From NCBI RefSeq assembly GCF_051903065.1, contig NZ_CP178438.1: a DNA stretch of 64,000 nt; one strand, given 5' to 3'. The translations under genes were made by a program, and so were the position numbers. Positions 45,342-55,214 of this stretch are shown one piece after another. Below the pieces are notes generated by a model that saw nothing but the letters and a program-made list of their open reading frames with translations, had not been told where the DNA came from and made no database searches. This stretch comes from Escherichia coli. Lineage in GTDB: Bacteria > Pseudomonadota > Gammaproteobacteria > Enterobacterales > Enterobacteriaceae. Each line of letters opens with the position of its first letter. Position 1 is the stretch's first letter.

Positions 45342-45858
45342 GGGTGTTCTACCGCAGGGGCGGGGAATTCTCAGTGATATCCATCATCGCATCCAGTGCG
45401 CCCGGTTTATCCCCGCTGGCGCGGGGAACACGTGTGGCACTCTGCGTCTGGTATTAAATCATTCGGTTTATCCCCGCTGGCGCGGGGAACACCCGCCACG
45501 CCGTGCGCATCAACAGATATACGCAGGTTTATCCCCGCTGGCGCGGGGAACACAAACCGAAACACACGATCAATCCGAATATGAGCGGTTTATCCCCGCT
45601 GGCGCGGGGAACACCGAAAAGGCACCGTGCCGGTGACGTTCAATTCCGGTTTATCCCCGCTGGCGCGGGGAACACCGTTTTCACTCACTGGCAATCTCCG
45701 AGCAGAGCGGTTTATCCCCGCTGGCGCGGGGAACACGTGCGAATACCGTGTAAAAAATTAGTGTTATTCGGTTTATCCCCGCTGGCGCGGGGAACACTCA
45801 CGGTAGCGCCACTGCGCGTCGGTGACGGGCGGTTTATCCCCGCTGGCGCGGGGAACAC
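45342..45858 (-). CRISPR. Type I-E CRISPR array: 8 canonical 29-bp repeats plus one degenerate terminal repeat, 8 spacers
   Basis: Repeat on + strand CGGTTTATCCCCGCTGGCGCGGGGAACAC at 45403, 45464, 45525 (first base A), 45586, 45647, 45708, 45769, 45830; 61-bp period; degenerate iap-proximal repeat 45342-45370 matches 19/29; spacers 32 bp; leader at the high-coordinate end, so crRNA is read from the minus strand. Confidence 0.97.
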
Positions 45859-49620: not shown

Positions 49621-50160
49621 TTATTGATTTTGTTCGTTATCGGCGTCGCCAGCCTGGTAATATTCCAGCGCCCAGCGGATACGGATAAATTCGGTTGGCC
49701 GCTGCTGGCGGCGGTGATGATTGAGCAGGTCGTCGCTCTCCTGACACCAGCGGAAAATATCGTCTGCCAAAGAGATAAGATTGACGGAACCGTTTAATAA
49801 TTTGACTGCGCGTCGTAACTGGCGCAGTAATTCATCCGGCGTTTTTACTGCCGACAGGCAAGTAAAACGCCCCTCTGACATTACCGCCGCCAGCTGTGCG
49901 GCAAAAGGCTGCCGTTCATCAATGGCTTTAACATTGGCGGCAACGGCGGCGACCAGTGCCAGTGCGGTAAAACGCCACTCTTGTGCTTCAATTTTCCACA
50001 AAGTGTGGGTCTGCATCAGCAGAGAACGAAACCCTTCTGACAAGCAAACATCATTAACCGTTGTGCTACGCCGCAGACTGGCACGATTGCCGCGTTTAGC
50101 CTGCAACTCTTCGTGCCATTTACGCAGCGTGGCTTTGTGCCCGTCTTTTACAATACTCAT
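49621..50160 (-). CDS. casB: Cse2 (CasB) Cascade small subunit
   Basis: 179 aa; position between cse1 and cas7; 4-nt overlap with cse1 stop. Confidence 0.85.
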   Translation of the reverse strand: MSIVKDGHKATLRKWHEELQAKRGNRASLRRSTTVNDVCLSEGFRSLLMQTHTLWKIEAQEWRFTALALVAAVAANVKAIDERQPFAAQLAAVMSEGRFTCLSAVKTPDELLRQLRRAVKLLNGSVNLISLADDIFRWCQESDDLLNHHRRQQRPTEFIRIRWALEYYQAGDADNEQNQ

Positions 50161-51719
50161 TCAGCAGCCTCCTGCTTTTTCTCCCTGGCGGCTTTAGCAC
50201 TTTGCTTCTCCGCCGATGTTGTAAAATATTTTTTGCGCGCGGTCATGACGCGTTTTAAATCAACGGGCTCATAAGGATTGGTGAATACACGCTCGTCAAA
50301 ATCCTGACGCGAGAATAACCAAATCTCCTTATTCCATTTGCTGAGTAATTCATCCGCATCCTGACCTTCTTCAATTTGGCGCACTAACCTCAGGAAGCGA
50401 TGCTGAGTTTTGTTCCAGAAGTCGATATCCACAAAACTGAAATCACCCCGTGCACCTTTTGGATCGGAGAACCATGCTTCTTTCAATGCACTCCGTAACA
50501 GACTTAGAATGCGTGAAGCCGTTTGCGCAGCCAGCCGCAGTTTCGGTATCTGGCCTTCTTTTTTATTGAGCAGCAGCGGGAAACGGTGTTCGTACCAACA
50601 GCGGGCTTTCATGTTGTCGAAATCATAGCCAAATCCCCATAGGCCTACTTTTGCCTGCTTGAGACTGCTGGCATTAAAGAGTTTCACCACCAGAGCGGGA
50701 AGTTCCGTATTGTTTTCTGACTTACCCGTTTCGATAAGGCCTAACCAGTCGCGCCAAATTAAACCGCCTGGTTGTGGTTTAACTGAGTAAAACTCGCCAC
50801 CCTCTTTAAGTGGTACACGGTAAGGCGTTAATGGATGCTGCCACATGGCATAATTCGCACCGTAATTTTTGGTCGTCATCAGGCTCAGAAGCGCGTCGTC
50901 CTGCTCACCGCAAATATCGCAGTTGCCGACTGTCGTGGTATTAAAATCAATACGAATACGCCGCGGCATTCCCCAGTACGCCTGGAGTTTATTGACCTGA
51001 TCATCGGTTACCACCGCACCGGCCAGTTCGCTGGTACGCGTCGGGCCAAGCCAGGGGAAAACCAGATCGTCAAATTTTTTGGGTAGCGGTAAGTCGGCTT
51101 CATCCTGCGGCATCACGTTGAGCCACAGTTTGCGCCACAAGGGGGCTTGTTGATTGCCCTGATACTCCTGCAATTCAATCAGAGTCGTCATCGGCCCACC
51201 GCCGCGTAAACCGGTTCGGTAGCCTTTGCCGCCTGACGGTGCATTTAACTGTAGGGAGAACAGAGCTAACGCGGAACAATGAGGGCATACGTGTTCAGTC
51301 ACGCCACGCTTAATAAAGTGGTCTTTATTAAACTTCGTTGTTTGAGCGCCGGGAATCTCAGGCAGTAATGAAGCAACCTGAACTTTATCTCCCGTGAGCG
51401 CCTCGAAATCCTGCATAAATGAAGGGGAATCTGGCCCAAACTGGAAAGCATGTTCTAAAGACAGCAATGCTTCCCGTAGCTTTTCGGCTTCCAGTCCGTC
51501 TTGCCAGATATCATCCCAACGACCATGATTTTTGGGCGCGAAACTGGTTTGTAGTAGCCCCAGTAAAAACTGCCATGCTGCTCCCTGGAGATCTGCTCGT
51601 GGCGCAGCGATATCGACAACATTTTCATCAGCCAGATCGACTGGCGCCAGTTTGCCTGTCGTTCCGTCTTTAAAACGAACGGGCAACCACGGGGTTGTCA
51701 GAAGTGAAAACGAGTTCAT
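50157..51719 (-). CDS. casA: Cse1 (CasA) Cascade large subunit
   Basis: ORF 50157..51725; start preferred at MNSFSLLTTPWLPV (ATG 51719, 6-nt spacing from GAGAGG); 520 aa. Confidence 0.88.
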   Translation of the reverse strand: MNSFSLLTTPWLPVRFKDGTTGKLAPVDLADENVVDIAAPRADLQGAAWQFLLGLLQTSFAPKNHGRWDDIWQDGLEAEKLREALLSLEHAFQFGPDSPSFMQDFEALTGDKVQVASLLPEIPGAQTTKFNKDHFIKRGVTEHVCPHCSALALFSLQLNAPSGGKGYRTGLRGGGPMTTLIELQEYQGNQQAPLWRKLWLNVMPQDEADLPLPKKFDDLVFPWLGPTRTSELAGAVVTDDQVNKLQAYWGMPRRIRIDFNTTTVGNCDICGEQDDALLSLMTTKNYGANYAMWQHPLTPYRVPLKEGGEFYSVKPQPGGLIWRDWLGLIETGKSENNTELPALVVKLFNASSLKQAKVGLWGFGYDFDNMKARCWYEHRFPLLLNKKEGQIPKLRLAAQTASRILSLLRSALKEAWFSDPKGARGDFSFVDIDFWNKTQHRFLRLVRQIEEGQDADELLSKWNKEIWLFSRQDFDERVFTNPYEPVDLKRVMTARKKYFTTSAEKQSAKAAREKKQEAAE

Positions 51720-52115
51720 ACGCATCCTCTCGTAGAAAAGACCATCCCTGGTCGGTTGTCCATCACCATATTTTCAGATTTAGTTGGAGACTTAATCTGA
51801 GTCGGATAAAAGAAAAGACGTTGAATGTGATACGAAAATCGAACTTAGTTTGTCGTTTTGAAAGCAGACTTAGCACAAGTTGAAGCAAAAAAATCGACAA
51901 CATCGTAGTCCTCTTCACCGCAGCTTTTCACCGGTCACGAAAATACGCCTTGTAACGGTGTGACTCAACTCCGGATCCGGACATTATTTAAAATCTTTGT
52001 TTCTCATTAACTCATAGCAATTACCCATCTATCATAATCACAATAGCATTGATAAAATAAATCCATTCCCTGATTCTAGGGATTAACCAAGTTAGTGAGA
52101 TACAAAAATTGGTTC

Positions 52116-52144
52116 CTGTTCCCCGCGTCAGCGGGGATAAGCCC
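52116..52144 (+). repeat. Solitary CRISPR-repeat-like element in the cas3-cse1 intergenic region
   Basis: + strand CTGTTCCCCGCGTCAGCGGGGATAAGCCC matches the crRNA-sense repeat GTGTTCCCCGCGCCAGCGGGGATAAACCG at 25/29 with the stem intact; orientation is opposite to the array; followed by a perfect 10-bp hairpin at 52142-52165 that abuts the cas3 stop. Confidence 0.8.
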
Positions 52145-52169
52145 TGGCGTCATCCGACGCCAGGGCATC

Positions 52170-54869
52170 TCAATCAACCTTGCCAATCAATCCTTCCGTA
52201 GCCGAATACCCGCAGCTTTCGTCATCGGTGACTAAAATCACGTTTGCCATCTCCGGATCTTGCCGTTGTTCAATGCACCACTGCCTGAACGCTTCCCCTT
52301 CCAGTAAAGAAAATTCATCCCGATGTTTTTTCCACCAGCTTCGACGCACTCTGGCAACGCTCATTTCCCATGCGTGAGCACCGCTGGCATAAGGCTTCAC
52401 CACACCGTCAATACAGGTAGCCAGCCACAGGGAAACAGACTCTTCAGCCAGACGTGTCGACAGCTTTTCCGGGAGGTAATCGTTGATATTGGCGGCATAG
52501 CCGGGCCTGAAGTTCAGCATAAACTTTTTAGCCATTGCGCGATCGCAGTAATATTTGCCCACTTGCTCCTGCTCGCTGCGGGCAAATCCTTCCGGCATTA
52601 CCACGTCCTCACCGTAGACGGATTCAATAAGAAGCCGGGCTGCGTGTGGCATCTGAATAGCGCCTTGCTCACGCAATACTCGCTGCGTCAGCCAGATTCG
52701 CCCATGATCGGGGTAGACATATGCGCTGTTACGCATCGCACTACCAAACCATTCGTCACCCGGAGAGTCGTCCCAGACGGGGGCCAGAATCAGCAATTCA
52801 GGAGGGGAACGCTCGTCTTTTCCATCACGTTTTAACTGACCATTAATATCACGAATATGCCGTTGTAATCGCCCCGCTCGCTGGATCAGCAAATCAATGG
52901 GGGCCAGGTCGGAGATCATTTCGTCCAGGTCAATATCCACACTTTGCTCAATTACTTGTGTACAAACAATGACTTGAGATGATCTTTTTAAACTACAATT
53001 TTTACCAAAGCGTGCCAGCGTTTCCGTTTCAATTCGCTGGCGATCGCTAAAAGCAAAGCGGCTATGAAAAAGTGAAAGGCTGGAAGCAGGAATGACGCCG
53101 CGGGCAAGTAACTGACGATAAACCTTAATAGCGTCATCGACAGAATTCCGGATCCAGGCGATGCATTTCCCCTGACTTACCGCTGATTCGATACGCGCAA
53201 TACATTCTTGTTCGCTATGAAGCCAACCCACGCTCACGCTACGCTCAACGTCTTTGCGCGTCGCTACCCGGTGCGAATGCACATCGGATTTCGTGACATG
53301 CGTCAGCCAGGGGTAATCATCCTTTTCTAGGAACGGAGCTTCTTGCTGGCCCTCTGTGCCACGCGCAAAGGCGGCGACAAGTTTGTCGCGCTGCTGTTGA
53401 GATAACGTAGCAGAAAGCAAAATGACGCTGTTTCCGCCACGCACCTGTCGCTCAATCAACCCTTCAAGAATGTACGACATGTAAGCGTCACAGGCGTGGA
53501 TCTCATCAGCCAGCAGGATTTTGTTACTCAACCCCAGAAGCCGCAGATTATTATGTTTAAACGGCATCACTGCCATCATCGCCTGATCCAGCGTGCCGAC
53601 GCCAATTTCAGCCAGTAAAGCCTTCTTGTTACTGTCGGCAAACCAGGCTGCACATCCTTGACTGAACGCTTGTTCATCCGGTTCTTCTGACCCGACTAAA
53701 TCACCGGACCAGAGTGATTCATTAAAGCGTTCCATTAATGTACGGGCGCTGTGTGCCAGCACCAGGCTGGGGCGGGATTCTGGCGAAAAGAAAGCAAGCC
53801 AGGTTTTGACCAGCCGATCGTACATGGCATTGGCCGTTGCCATTGTTGGCAGGCCAAAAAACAAACCCTGAGCTTTATTCTCAGCCATCAACCTGTGCGC
53901 CAGGATAAGCGCCGCTTCTGTTTTACCTGCGCCAGTCACATCTTCCAGAATAAATAACTGTGGCCCTGGCTGGCTGATATCCAGATCCAGTACCTTTTGC
54001 TGTAATGGTGTCGGGTGCTCAATAAAAGGAAACAGCGTATTAATTCCGGTGAAAGGTGCGGTTTCTGCTTTTGGAGGAAAGACGGTTAAGGCGTTTTGAG
54101 CCTGAACTAAAGTTTTCTGCCAGTAATCTTTAATATTCATTGTCTGTGCGACGCGTGGAAAAAATCGCGTTGACGAACCCGTCCAGTCTGCGAGTACGAC
54201 TGTTGCAGAGATATACCAGGAAAGTTGTTTTAAAAGTTCAACGCCCTCGTCATCATCCCAGAATGTGGGAATCTCTATGAGCGGAAACAGTGACTTGATT
54301 TCAAGGAGAAAATCTCGTGCGGCAGCTTTGTCTTCAGGCAGGAAATTATCCAGTTCATCAATACGGTCAGGGGGCCGACCATGATGCCCGGTAGTCATGG
54401 GCATCCACATCGCTATTACACGTTTAAGTTTGCGAGTAGAGAGTGAAGAGGCAGGAAGCAATTCTTCGCATTCACTTAAATAATGATGCCACAACCAGTA
54501 GCCCAGCGTTGAATGAGAGATCTTTTCGTAATTCTTTCTTGCGCCTTCCGGAACCTTGAGTTGTGGGTGCAGGTAAAGTTGCTGAAATGAGCGGGCAAAT
54601 TTTCCAATATCGTGCCAGCACAACAACCAGGCGAAAAATTGAGCCGCCTGTTCCTTGTCAGAAATCCCTAATTGACGAAAATAATCAGCCAGCCCGAAGC
54701 AATTTCTTTTAACCATTAAATAGCCCATCGCGGCCACATCCAGCGAATGCCAGCAAAGAAGGTGATAGTCGTCACCCCCTTCTTTCTCGTCGCGTCGGGT
54801 TTTTCCCCAGAAATCAAAGAAAGTCACAATATTTTTATCCTTCAGTAAACTTAAAGGATATTTACGCAT
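52170..54869 (-). CDS. cas3: Cas3 HD nuclease / SF2 helicase (type I-E)
   Basis: 899 aa; N-terminal HD motifs (LLCWHSLDV, WHDIGKF), helicase Walker A GAGKTEAAL and DEIHA box; highly AT-rich upstream region. Confidence 0.92.
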   Translation of the reverse strand: MRKYPLSLLKDKNIVTFFDFWGKTRRDEKEGGDDYHLLCWHSLDVAAMGYLMVKRNCFGLADYFRQLGISDKEQAAQFFAWLLCWHDIGKFARSFQQLYLHPQLKVPEGARKNYEKISHSTLGYWLWHHYLSECEELLPASSLSTRKLKRVIAMWMPMTTGHHGRPPDRIDELDNFLPEDKAAARDFLLEIKSLFPLIEIPTFWDDDEGVELLKQLSWYISATVVLADWTGSSTRFFPRVAQTMNIKDYWQKTLVQAQNALTVFPPKAETAPFTGINTLFPFIEHPTPLQQKVLDLDISQPGPQLFILEDVTGAGKTEAALILAHRLMAENKAQGLFFGLPTMATANAMYDRLVKTWLAFFSPESRPSLVLAHSARTLMERFNESLWSGDLVGSEEPDEQAFSQGCAAWFADSNKKALLAEIGVGTLDQAMMAVMPFKHNNLRLLGLSNKILLADEIHACDAYMSYILEGLIERQVRGGNSVILLSATLSQQQRDKLVAAFARGTEGQQEAPFLEKDDYPWLTHVTKSDVHSHRVATRKDVERSVSVGWLHSEQECIARIESAVSQGKCIAWIRNSVDDAIKVYRQLLARGVIPASSLSLFHSRFAFSDRQRIETETLARFGKNCSLKRSSQVIVCTQVIEQSVDIDLDEMISDLAPIDLLIQRAGRLQRHIRDINGQLKRDGKDERSPPELLILAPVWDDSPGDEWFGSAMRNSAYVYPDHGRIWLTQRVLREQGAIQMPHAARLLIESVYGEDVVMPEGFARSEQEQVGKYYCDRAMAKKFMLNFRPGYAANINDYLPEKLSTRLAEESVSLWLATCIDGVVKPYASGAHAWEMSVARVRRSWWKKHRDEFSLLEGEAFRQWCIEQRQDPEMANVILVTDDESCGYSATEGLIGKVD

Positions 54870-55061
54870 ATTTTAAAAATTATCTGTGATATATATCAGC
54901 CAATAAAACATTTATATTGTGAATAAATTTATGATTTTCATTTGAAATTCATAATAATAAATAGAGACAATATATTCACATAAAAAATATAAATTTAAAA
55001 AAGGGTGCAGGAGACCAAACCATCACAATTCAATACGCGGGGTTTTACCCCCGCGTGGTGG

Positions 55062-55214
55062 CTACTTCTTCGATTCGTAAGCGAGAACAGCCTTAAACTC
55101 CATACCACGTTCTCTGATACTCAACTCACACAACGAGTCACCTACCATCAGCGTGAATCCCAGTACTGTACAACACAGTACGATGATTGCCACAAGGGCA
55201 TATTTTGTCAGCAT
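55062..55214 (-). CDS. Hok/Gef-family type I toxin (50 aa), HokE-like
   Basis: Not in ORF track (too short). ATG 55214 after GGGAGG; translation [50 protein letters not shown] with the Hok signature SLCE..R.G.E..A.LAYES.K; stem-loop GCGGGGGTAAAACCCCGC just downstream (55036-55055). Confidence 0.7.

Follow-up and report, generated by a model that had tools for sequence, protein, structure and literature searches.

The 450-bp spacer between cas3 and casA (cse1) of a type I-E locus in Escherichia coli carries a miniature CRISPR array, whose single pseudo-spacer matches a site in the same spacer that is flanked by a protospacer adjacent motif (PAM). The spacer occupies positions 51720-52169 of a 64,000-nucleotide stretch of contig NZ_CP178438.1 (assembly GCF_051903065.1), which we refer to as the window. 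Judging by its sequence, the spacer is probably the region from which a rare E. coli allele controls its Cascade operon, and it probably works as an autorepression circuit of the CreR type. At the level of sequence the element agrees in every respect with the CreR or regulatory mini-array class: two repeat-like sequences flank one spacer-like sequence, a PAM-flanked partial match with an intact seed lies near the predicted promoter of the effector cas genes, and spacer and target have been kept together.

The anatomy of the element, the PAM-flanked match and the covariation of guide and target are direct observations (Table 1). The mini-array has the order repeat-spacer-repeat, runs on the plus strand, antisense to the cas genes, and lies inside the cas locus, separate from the main CRISPR array on the other strand. 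The crRNA-sense (CRISPR RNA) repeat of that main array, read on the minus strand (GTGTTCCCCGCGCCAGCGGGGATAAACCG), served as the reference for both repeats of the mini-array. The downstream repeat, R2, is identical to it at 25 of 29 positions in the opposite orientation, where 0 such matches are expected by chance; its stem is intact, and the sole substitution inside the stem-loop sits in the loop. The upstream repeat, PsiR1, shares 16 of 29 positions; apart from the array, it alone in the window fits the repeat skeleton TTCCC-N5-11-GGGATWAACC (0 expected). It keeps a 6-bp hairpin and ends in ATTAACCA, which has six of eight positions as in the crRNA 5' handle ATAAACCG. The upstream repeat thus retains 5'-handle nucleotides and the downstream repeat retains the Cas6 hairpin and the 3' handle, as they do in CreR and regulatory mini-arrays. 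The fold of the 134-nt RNA of positions 52042-52175 consists of exactly three hairpins, those of PsiR1 and R2 and a terminal one (-54.1 kcal/mol, z=-7.45). The terminal hairpin is GC-rich, stands between R2 and the cas3 stop codon, is followed by no U-tract on either strand, and is possibly a 3'-end or stability element for the cas3 mRNA and/or for the RNA of the mini-array, creR. Tandem Repeats Finder detected nothing between 40 and 64 kb of the window; it also missed the main array, because the spacers of that array differ.

The pseudo-spacer, PsiS, pairs with its predicted target approximately 270-295 bp upstream of casA at positions 1-5, 7-11, 13-17 and 19-21, with mismatches at positions 6, 12 and 18, and pairing ends after 21 of the 26 nt. 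If every sixth position is ignored, the match amounts to 18 contiguous pairs with a seed of 7/7. In the R-loops of Cascade, positions 6, 12 and 18 flip out and go unread, and ATG, the PAM of the target, is one of the interference-proficient type I-E PAMs. None of 1000 shuffled versions of PsiS reached the score of the target in the spacer region, and no other site in the 64 kb has more than 8 contiguous pairs to PsiS. The mini-array's own copy of PsiS is flanked by repeat-derived CCA and not by a PAM. Mismatches at every sixth position have been described for mini-array targets (PMC10120712).

Relatives of the spacer were searched for in 5426 complete E. coli genomes by megablast with positions 51700-52200, and related long-spacer loci were gathered via relatives of Cse1. 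The query matched in 2436 of the 5426 genomes. The long spacer of the window type (>80% of the query matched) occurs in six genomes and a second long type, N3 (429 bp, approximately 63% identical to the window spacer), in three, while in about 2400 genomes of the same cas type cas3 and casA stand just 97 bp apart and there is no mini-array. The corresponding gap in E. albertii is 89 bp, and typical Salmonella enterica, Citrobacter youngae and Phytobacter were rejected as carriers, as the 11 bp between their cas3 and cse1 leave no room for the element. The central 236 bp of the spacer have no match in plasmids or phages, and a metagenome scan for GGGATWAACCRAGTTAGT returned 100 stretches, among them one true mini-array (L123, identical to the N3 type) and two ordinary arrays, the rest being chance matches.

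Five alleles, namely those of the window, E. coli strain 135, N3, the Logan contig L147 and the Salmonella enterica locus L045, have the AGTTA seed in common and differ in the PsiS sequence downstream of it. In each of them PsiS matches its own AAG- or ATG-flanked site approximately 50-60 bp upstream of PsiR1, and guide and target covary at positions 8, 9, 10, 14, 15, 16, 17 and 19, with two or three matched states across the alleles. Position 6 never matches and position 12 matches in one allele only. The N3 target was missed when sites were ranked by the longest uninterrupted match and was found once every sixth position was ignored in the scoring. The window and strain 135 differ by 15 substitutions and a single indel, all within 51975-52131, a segment of about 155 bp that spans target, promoter, PsiR1, PsiS and R2; the remaining 345 or so aligned bases contain one substitution. 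This clustering suggests either that recombination acted locally or that guide and target co-evolved fast. Between the two alleles position 15 of PsiS and position 15 of the target change together (A to T), a C:G pair of the R2 stem becomes T:A (U:A in RNA), as it does in Atlantibacter, and a G:U pair of PsiR1 becomes G:C. A separate observation concerns the Logan contigs L147 and L148 (SRR33471270 and SRR33471223), in which mini-array and casA are intact and the sequence upstream of R2 contains no cas3 but repeated GATCATGTTCAGC motifs and a terminator-like hairpin; cas3 appears to have been replaced or displaced in this allele.

The same architecture, with a PAM-flanked seed match and mismatches at positions 6 and 12, is found at more distant loci in Klebsiella spallanzanii, the contig L151, Atlantibacter, Chimaeribacter and E. 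coli K-12, the match of K-12 being the weakest. These seed matches appear only if PsiS is taken to begin directly after the 8-nt handle, the start with which the K. spallanzanii match was found. In an alignment of R2 and the terminal hairpin from ten loci 89% of the cells are paired, as compared to 32-58% when the partners are slid, and the terminal GC hairpin shows compensatory changes in five pairs. PsiS is 32, 26, 20 or 19 nt long among the loci. These lengths lie near 6-nt steps, and with crRNAs of altered length in mind each such step would correspond to one Cas7 unit.

Could the mini-array be just an orphan repeat, or what is left of an old CRISPR array in decay, and could R2 with the GC hairpin be merely the 3' end or the terminator of cas3? 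The two do stand directly after the cas3 stop codon, but neither hairpin is called as an intrinsic terminator and the cas3 strand has no U-tract after either of them, so that the terminator role is likewise unproven. Stand-alone repeats crop up sporadically in type I-E loci (PMC10120712) and most E. coli are without the element, which would suit a remnant; a fossil, however, would neither retain a PAM-flanked, seed-perfect match to a nearby site nor covary with its target across alleles and genera, and compensatory changes would not be expected to preserve both repeat hairpins. We regard this explanation as highly improbable.

The autorepression mechanism as such is already known from Salmonella, and the element described here is homologous to a Salmonella allele. 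In the type I-E locus of S. enterica, creR in the cas3-casA spacer acts by way of E. coli Cascade to repress PcasA 8.6-fold (Liu et al. 2023, bioRxiv 10.1101/2023.03.10.532045), and repression is relieved by excess crRNA or by AcrIE8 (same source). Like the window, S. enterica ATCC 51960 has a degenerate mini-CRISPR in the cas3-casA spacer, a PsiR1 that keeps part of the 5' handle, a PsiR2 that keeps hairpin and 3' handle, and a partial match of PsiS to a PAM-flanked site upstream of casA. Different from the window however, its PAM is AAG and not ATG, 15 consecutive nucleotides are paired instead of 5+5+5+3, and the target lies approximately 140 bp instead of 270-295 bp upstream of casA. The published PsiS of ATCC 51960 begins with TAG and is a different allele from that of the window and of L045, the latter being the homologous Salmonella element with a 26-nt PsiS starting AGTTAGT and a target starting AGTTAAT. 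Mini-arrays between cas3 and cas8, with AAG-flanked promoter targets, have been predicted in about 19% of bacterial type I-E loci, E. coli included (Shmakov et al. 2023, PMC10120712).

The mini-array predicted for K-12 shares with that of the window its place at the cas3-proximal end of the spacer, its antisense orientation and its repeat-spacer-repeat plan (Shmakov et al. 2023, PMC10120712; for the anti-Pcas transcript, Pul et al. 2010, cited after PMC7074321 and PMC10011333). Its AAG-flanked seed match in the spacer was recovered here too (locus L004, 8357-8388). Outside the repeat-derived parts the two spacers are not homologous. The K-12 mini-array (L004, 8485-8575) has a PsiR1 with the exact ATAAACCG handle and a PsiS of 32 nt as opposed to 26 nt in the window. 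Its PsiR2 is identical to the repeat at 14 of 29 positions and overlaps the cas3 stop codon, so that the last codons of K-12 cas3 are built from a decayed repeat, whereas R2 of the window matches at 25 of 29 and lies outside cas3. The K-12 match is also the weaker one, with 7 contiguous pairs that are equalled by 178 of 1000 shuffles.

How would such a circuit operate? We infer transcription, processing, Cascade loading, promoter positions and repression itself as follows. A short plus-strand RNA antisense to cas, likely starting from an extended -10 element just upstream of PsiR1, would be processed by Cas6e at the PsiR1 hairpin and at the intact R2, and the resulting crRNA-like guide with its 26-nt pseudo-spacer would load into Cascade. 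The complex would then bind the ATG-flanked target, which has the antisense promoter on one side and the likely casA promoter on the other. By analogy with the published work on CreA and CreR, pairing that stops after position 21 of 26 would mean that the target is bound and not cleaved; partial pairing over positions 1-21, minus every sixth, would thus allow Cascade to bind without licensing cleavage by Cas3. Binding would lower transcription of casA to cas2, and repression would be relieved when ordinary crRNAs titrate Cascade or when anti-CRISPRs block it.

The spacer must hold the Cascade promoter, and the best candidate for it is a TTGAGT-17-TATTTT arrangement whose hexamers and spacing are kept in the window, strain 135, N3 and L147, even though the spacers of the window and N3 are only about 63% identical. 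By our own count it agrees with the consensus at 8 of 12 positions, which is below the threshold of 9 of 12 used in the promoter-consensus scan, and it was not reported by that scan. The best candidate for the creR promoter is the extended -10 element, part of a motif TTG(A/G)TAnnn(T/A) that stands at a constant distance from TTCC(C/T) in all five of five alleles, including Salmonella L045; it would predict a creR transcript start near 52065. A sigma-70-like site that overlaps target and PAM offers an alternative. If both conserved assignments are right, the target lies between two divergent promoters, approximately 50-80 bp upstream of each start, and the prediction for K-12 likewise places the target just upstream of Pcas (PMC10120712). 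Between target and candidate -35 there is also a self-complementary 12-mer, TCCGGATCCGGA, at 51971-51982, which could be a palindrome bound by a protein; strain 135 has TCCGGAACCGGA in its place, and in N3 it is degraded.

Closer to casA, a small terminator-like hairpin recurs in all long spacers and in all spacer alleles of 89-97 bp (E. coli, Salmonella, Klebsiella, Atlantibacter and Chimaeribacter), with a conserved core CCA-NGGA-TGG and a variable outer stem. It lies approximately 20-30 nt upstream of the casA start in L002, L003, L005-L007, L009, L011-L013, L026, L045 and L147, and it occurs even in the 89-97 bp spacers that have no mini-array. A T-run comes after it in E. coli. Folding of the putative casA 5' leader (51935-51700) is not unusual (z=0.07).

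Several observations weigh against autorepression by a CreR-type guide. The target lies some 55-80 bp upstream of the predicted casA core promoter and not on it. The promoter calls are guesses from the consensus, and the consensus scan found 2 sites in the region where shuffled sequences lead one to expect 0.9, which is not above chance. PsiR1 is strongly degenerate (16/29) and its handle departs from AUAAACCG at two of eight positions, which renders Cas6e cleavage and Cascade loading uncertain. A scan of 51500-52400 against Rfam returned no matching family, only a chance snoRNA-like match. The roughly 2400 genomes that have the same cas type without the element indicate that it is dispensable. 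Finally, the similarity of PsiS and target could in part reflect common descent from an old self-derived spacer and not present function, though the covariation argues to the contrary.

The region 51720-52115, that is the spacer without its final 54 bases, had been singled out in an earlier note on this DNA as an AT-rich stretch upstream of cse1 that fits a cas promoter silenced by H-NS and relieved by LeuO, with an antisense promoter nearby. Its position and composition are borne out. The annotated start of casA is 51719, and the region belongs to the gap between cas3 and cse1 in a type I-E locus of E. coli. Its GC content is 38.4% versus 49.9% in casA, 49.3% in cas3 and 53.2% in the window as a whole (42% in the complete spacer, which extends up to the cas3 stop codon, starting at 52170). 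Of the 396-bp intervals in the 64 kb, just 0.54% are as low in GC, and the region is the second most AT-rich stretch of this length, surpassed only by 54651-55046 upstream of cas3 (33.6%). Inside the spacer the composition is patchy, with 52% GC at 51900-51949 and 30-34% at 52000-52099. Intergenic DNA is usually low in GC, and AT-richness alone is therefore no pointer to a specific regulator. The boundary at 52115 falls one base short of R2, which is part of the same feature, and that first reading missed what the region chiefly contains, the mini-CRISPR together with its target.

The explanation to be weighed here is that the region is merely a Cascade promoter silenced by H-NS and activated by LeuO, with an antisense promoter as in K-12, and that its repeat-like sequences have no regulatory part. 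AT-rich DNA is generally bound by H-NS, and the spacer, at 38-42% GC, is AT-rich relative to its flanks. It also has the genomic position of the K-12 region upstream of the Cascade operon on which Pcas (Pcas8e), the divergent anti-Pcas and the sites for H-NS, LeuO and CRP have been mapped and in which both promoters are repressed by H-NS (PMC10011333, PMC7074321). However, the spacers of the window and of K-12 are not significantly similar (their best local alignment has E=1.9), the latter being 414 bp long with 29.5% GC as compared to 450 bp and 42%, and the K-12 promoter, H-NS, LeuO and CRP sites are thus not transferable by homology. The single match of the spacer to the H-NS high-affinity motif TCGATAAATT has 2 mismatches, coincides with the extended -10 element (52049-52058) and is at chance level (77 similar matches across the window versus about 55 expected by chance), and the motif scan found no CRP-like site within the spacer. 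The silenced promoter is reasonable as to its location in the cas3-cse1 region, and a conserved candidate for the antisense promoter is present in the extended -10 element; the specific H-NS/LeuO mechanism, which was worked out on a non-homologous region, finds no support in the sequence of the spacer. This explanation moreover leaves unexplained why there is a match beside a PAM, why its mismatches fall at positions 6, 12 and 18 and why guide and target covary, and we consider it unlikely to be the whole account. The two readings are not mutually exclusive: H-NS silencing may act in addition to, and is compatible with, repression by Cascade and creR. Upstream of cas3, within 54651-55214, the window reaches its highest AT content (33.6% GC); this stretch carries a gene of the hok/gef toxin family (55062-55214, minus strand), corresponds to the sokX region of K-12, and is a better candidate than the spacer for silencing of the classic H-NS type, in this case of cas3.

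A small open reading frame (ORF) of the spacer raises a further question, namely whether Cascade and creR guard the cell in the manner of CreTA. CreTA of the type I-B system of Haloarcula hispanica (Li et al. 2021) likewise uses a degenerate crRNA-like RNA, which directs Cascade to a promoter site that it matches in part and that is not cleaved; it controls a toxin, whereas here there is only a 46-aa candidate ORF, and subtype and host differ. If the promoter repressed by Cascade and creR led first into a gene for a small toxic membrane peptide, a cell whose Cascade is lost or inhibited would die or be arrested, and the circuit would become a CreTA-like addiction module or anti-anti-CRISPR guard for the E. 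coli type I-E system. The ORF lies between target or candidate promoter and casA, follows a Shine-Dalgarno-like sequence, has a hydrophobic N-terminus and is followed by the small hairpin, and an enrichment of toxin genes in the interval from mini-array to cas genes is reported (PMC10120712); yet AT-rich DNA easily yields short hydrophobic ORFs. The segment of about 150 bp that contains it (approximately 51760-51920) is found only in the six E. coli genomes of the window allele and is invariant between two alleles that differ by some 10% in the adjacent mini-array region, but the N3, L147 and Salmonella alleles have the same mini-array without the ORF. Neither the 46-aa nor the 51-aa version has a match in Pfam or PADLOC, and word-indexed and exhaustive searches of 5.8 billion proteins and of 1.84 billion representatives gave no homologue. 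Membership in a small-ORF family of Klebsiella and Atlantibacter was rejected, as comparison by hidden Markov models gave no detectable relation (E=24). We would give a guard function very little credence, and continue to favour autorepression of the Cascade operon.

That other small ORF, with the core KRLFCRLMIRLGNKLSVSFQLSVR, is found just upstream of casA and in casA sense in K. spallanzanii, K. indica, the Logan contig L151 and Atlantibacter. It shows many synonymous differences at third codon positions, a signature of protein-coding sequence, contains two ACTGTCAGT palindromes and is annotated in one genome, merely as a hypothetical protein. Conceivably, it encodes a second protein component that has gone unrecognised in circuits of this kind.

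Over positions 51700-52200 the window has 100% identity to E. coli strain 23CRST027. According to the RefSeq annotation of the identical record, the minus strand of the window carries, in this order, cas2, cas1, cas6e, cas5, cas7, casB, casA, cas3, the hok/gef gene, cysH, cysI and cysJ.

Table 1. Coordinates of the mini-array, its predicted target and other features of the locus (positions refer to the window unless a locus is named)
Feature	Position	Strand	Description
Degenerate repeat PsiR1	52062-52089	+	Hairpin 52067-52082 (UCCCUG-AUUC-UAGGGA); 5'-handle-like AUUAACCA at 52082-52089
Pseudo-spacer PsiS	52090-52115	+	26 nt, AGTTAGTGAGATACAAAAATTGGTTC
Near-perfect CRISPR repeat R2	52116-52144	+	CTGTTCCCCGCGTCAGCGGGGATAAGCCC; stem 52120-52126 pairs with 52131-52137
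GC-rich 11-bp hairpin	52141-52166		Between R2 and cas3 stop codon; from fold
Predicted CreR target	51987-52015	-	PAM ATG (52015-52013) and protospacer 52012-51987, AGTTAaTGAGAaACAAAgATTttaaa
Candidate casA promoter	51940-51968	-	-35 TTGAGT (51968-51963), 17-nt spacer, -10 TATTTT (51945-51940)
Conserved extended -10, best candidate creR promoter	52049-52058	+	TTGATAAAAT (TG-n-TAAAAT), 7-9 nt upstream of PsiR1
Sigma-70-like site, alternative creR promoter	52007-52035	+	TTAACT-17-TATCAT; 9/12 consensus; overlaps target and PAM
Small hairpin, flagged terminator-like	51740-51753	-	GACCAGGGATGGTC then TTTTCT; approximately 20 nt upstream of casA start
Candidate small ORF (speculative)	51763-51903	-	46 aa from ATG (51 aa from GTG at 51918), MLSIFLLQLVLSLLSKRQTKFDFRITFNVFSFIRLRLSLQLNLKIW; Shine-Dalgarno-like GAAGAGGA
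casA (cse1)	50157-51719	-	ORF; RefSeq record with 100% identity annotates type I-E Cse1/CasA, 520 aa; homologues with PF09481
cas3	52170-54869	-	ORF and RefSeq annotation
Main CRISPR array	45402-45858	-	8 repeats, 61-nt period, downstream of cas2
Small ORF with core KRLFCRLMIRLGNKLSVSFQLSVR	L009 2504-2608; L026 3869-3943; L151 990-1148; L012 3824-3940	casA-sense	

Most of what is known about the regulation of type I-E systems comes from E. coli K-12, but other E. coli carry a non-homologous control region, and the promoter and H-NS/LeuO maps of K-12 should not be carried over to such regions by analogy. In reviews the role of the K-12 anti-Pcas transcript is still given as unknown (PMC10011333, PMC7074321); reading the antisense RNA as that of a mini-array would give this transcript a function. 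The spacer of the window would represent a CreR circuit that occurs naturally in E. coli and for which the evidence in the sequence is unusually clear: its mismatches fall at unread positions, guide and target covary within and between species, and the lengths of PsiS step from 32 to 26 to 20 nt. Moreover, E. coli is naturally polymorphic for the element, which is present together with the long spacer in nine complete genomes and absent from the approximately 2400 of the same cas type that have the 97-bp spacer. The costs and benefits of Cascade autorepression should thus be testable in near-isogenic natural backgrounds.

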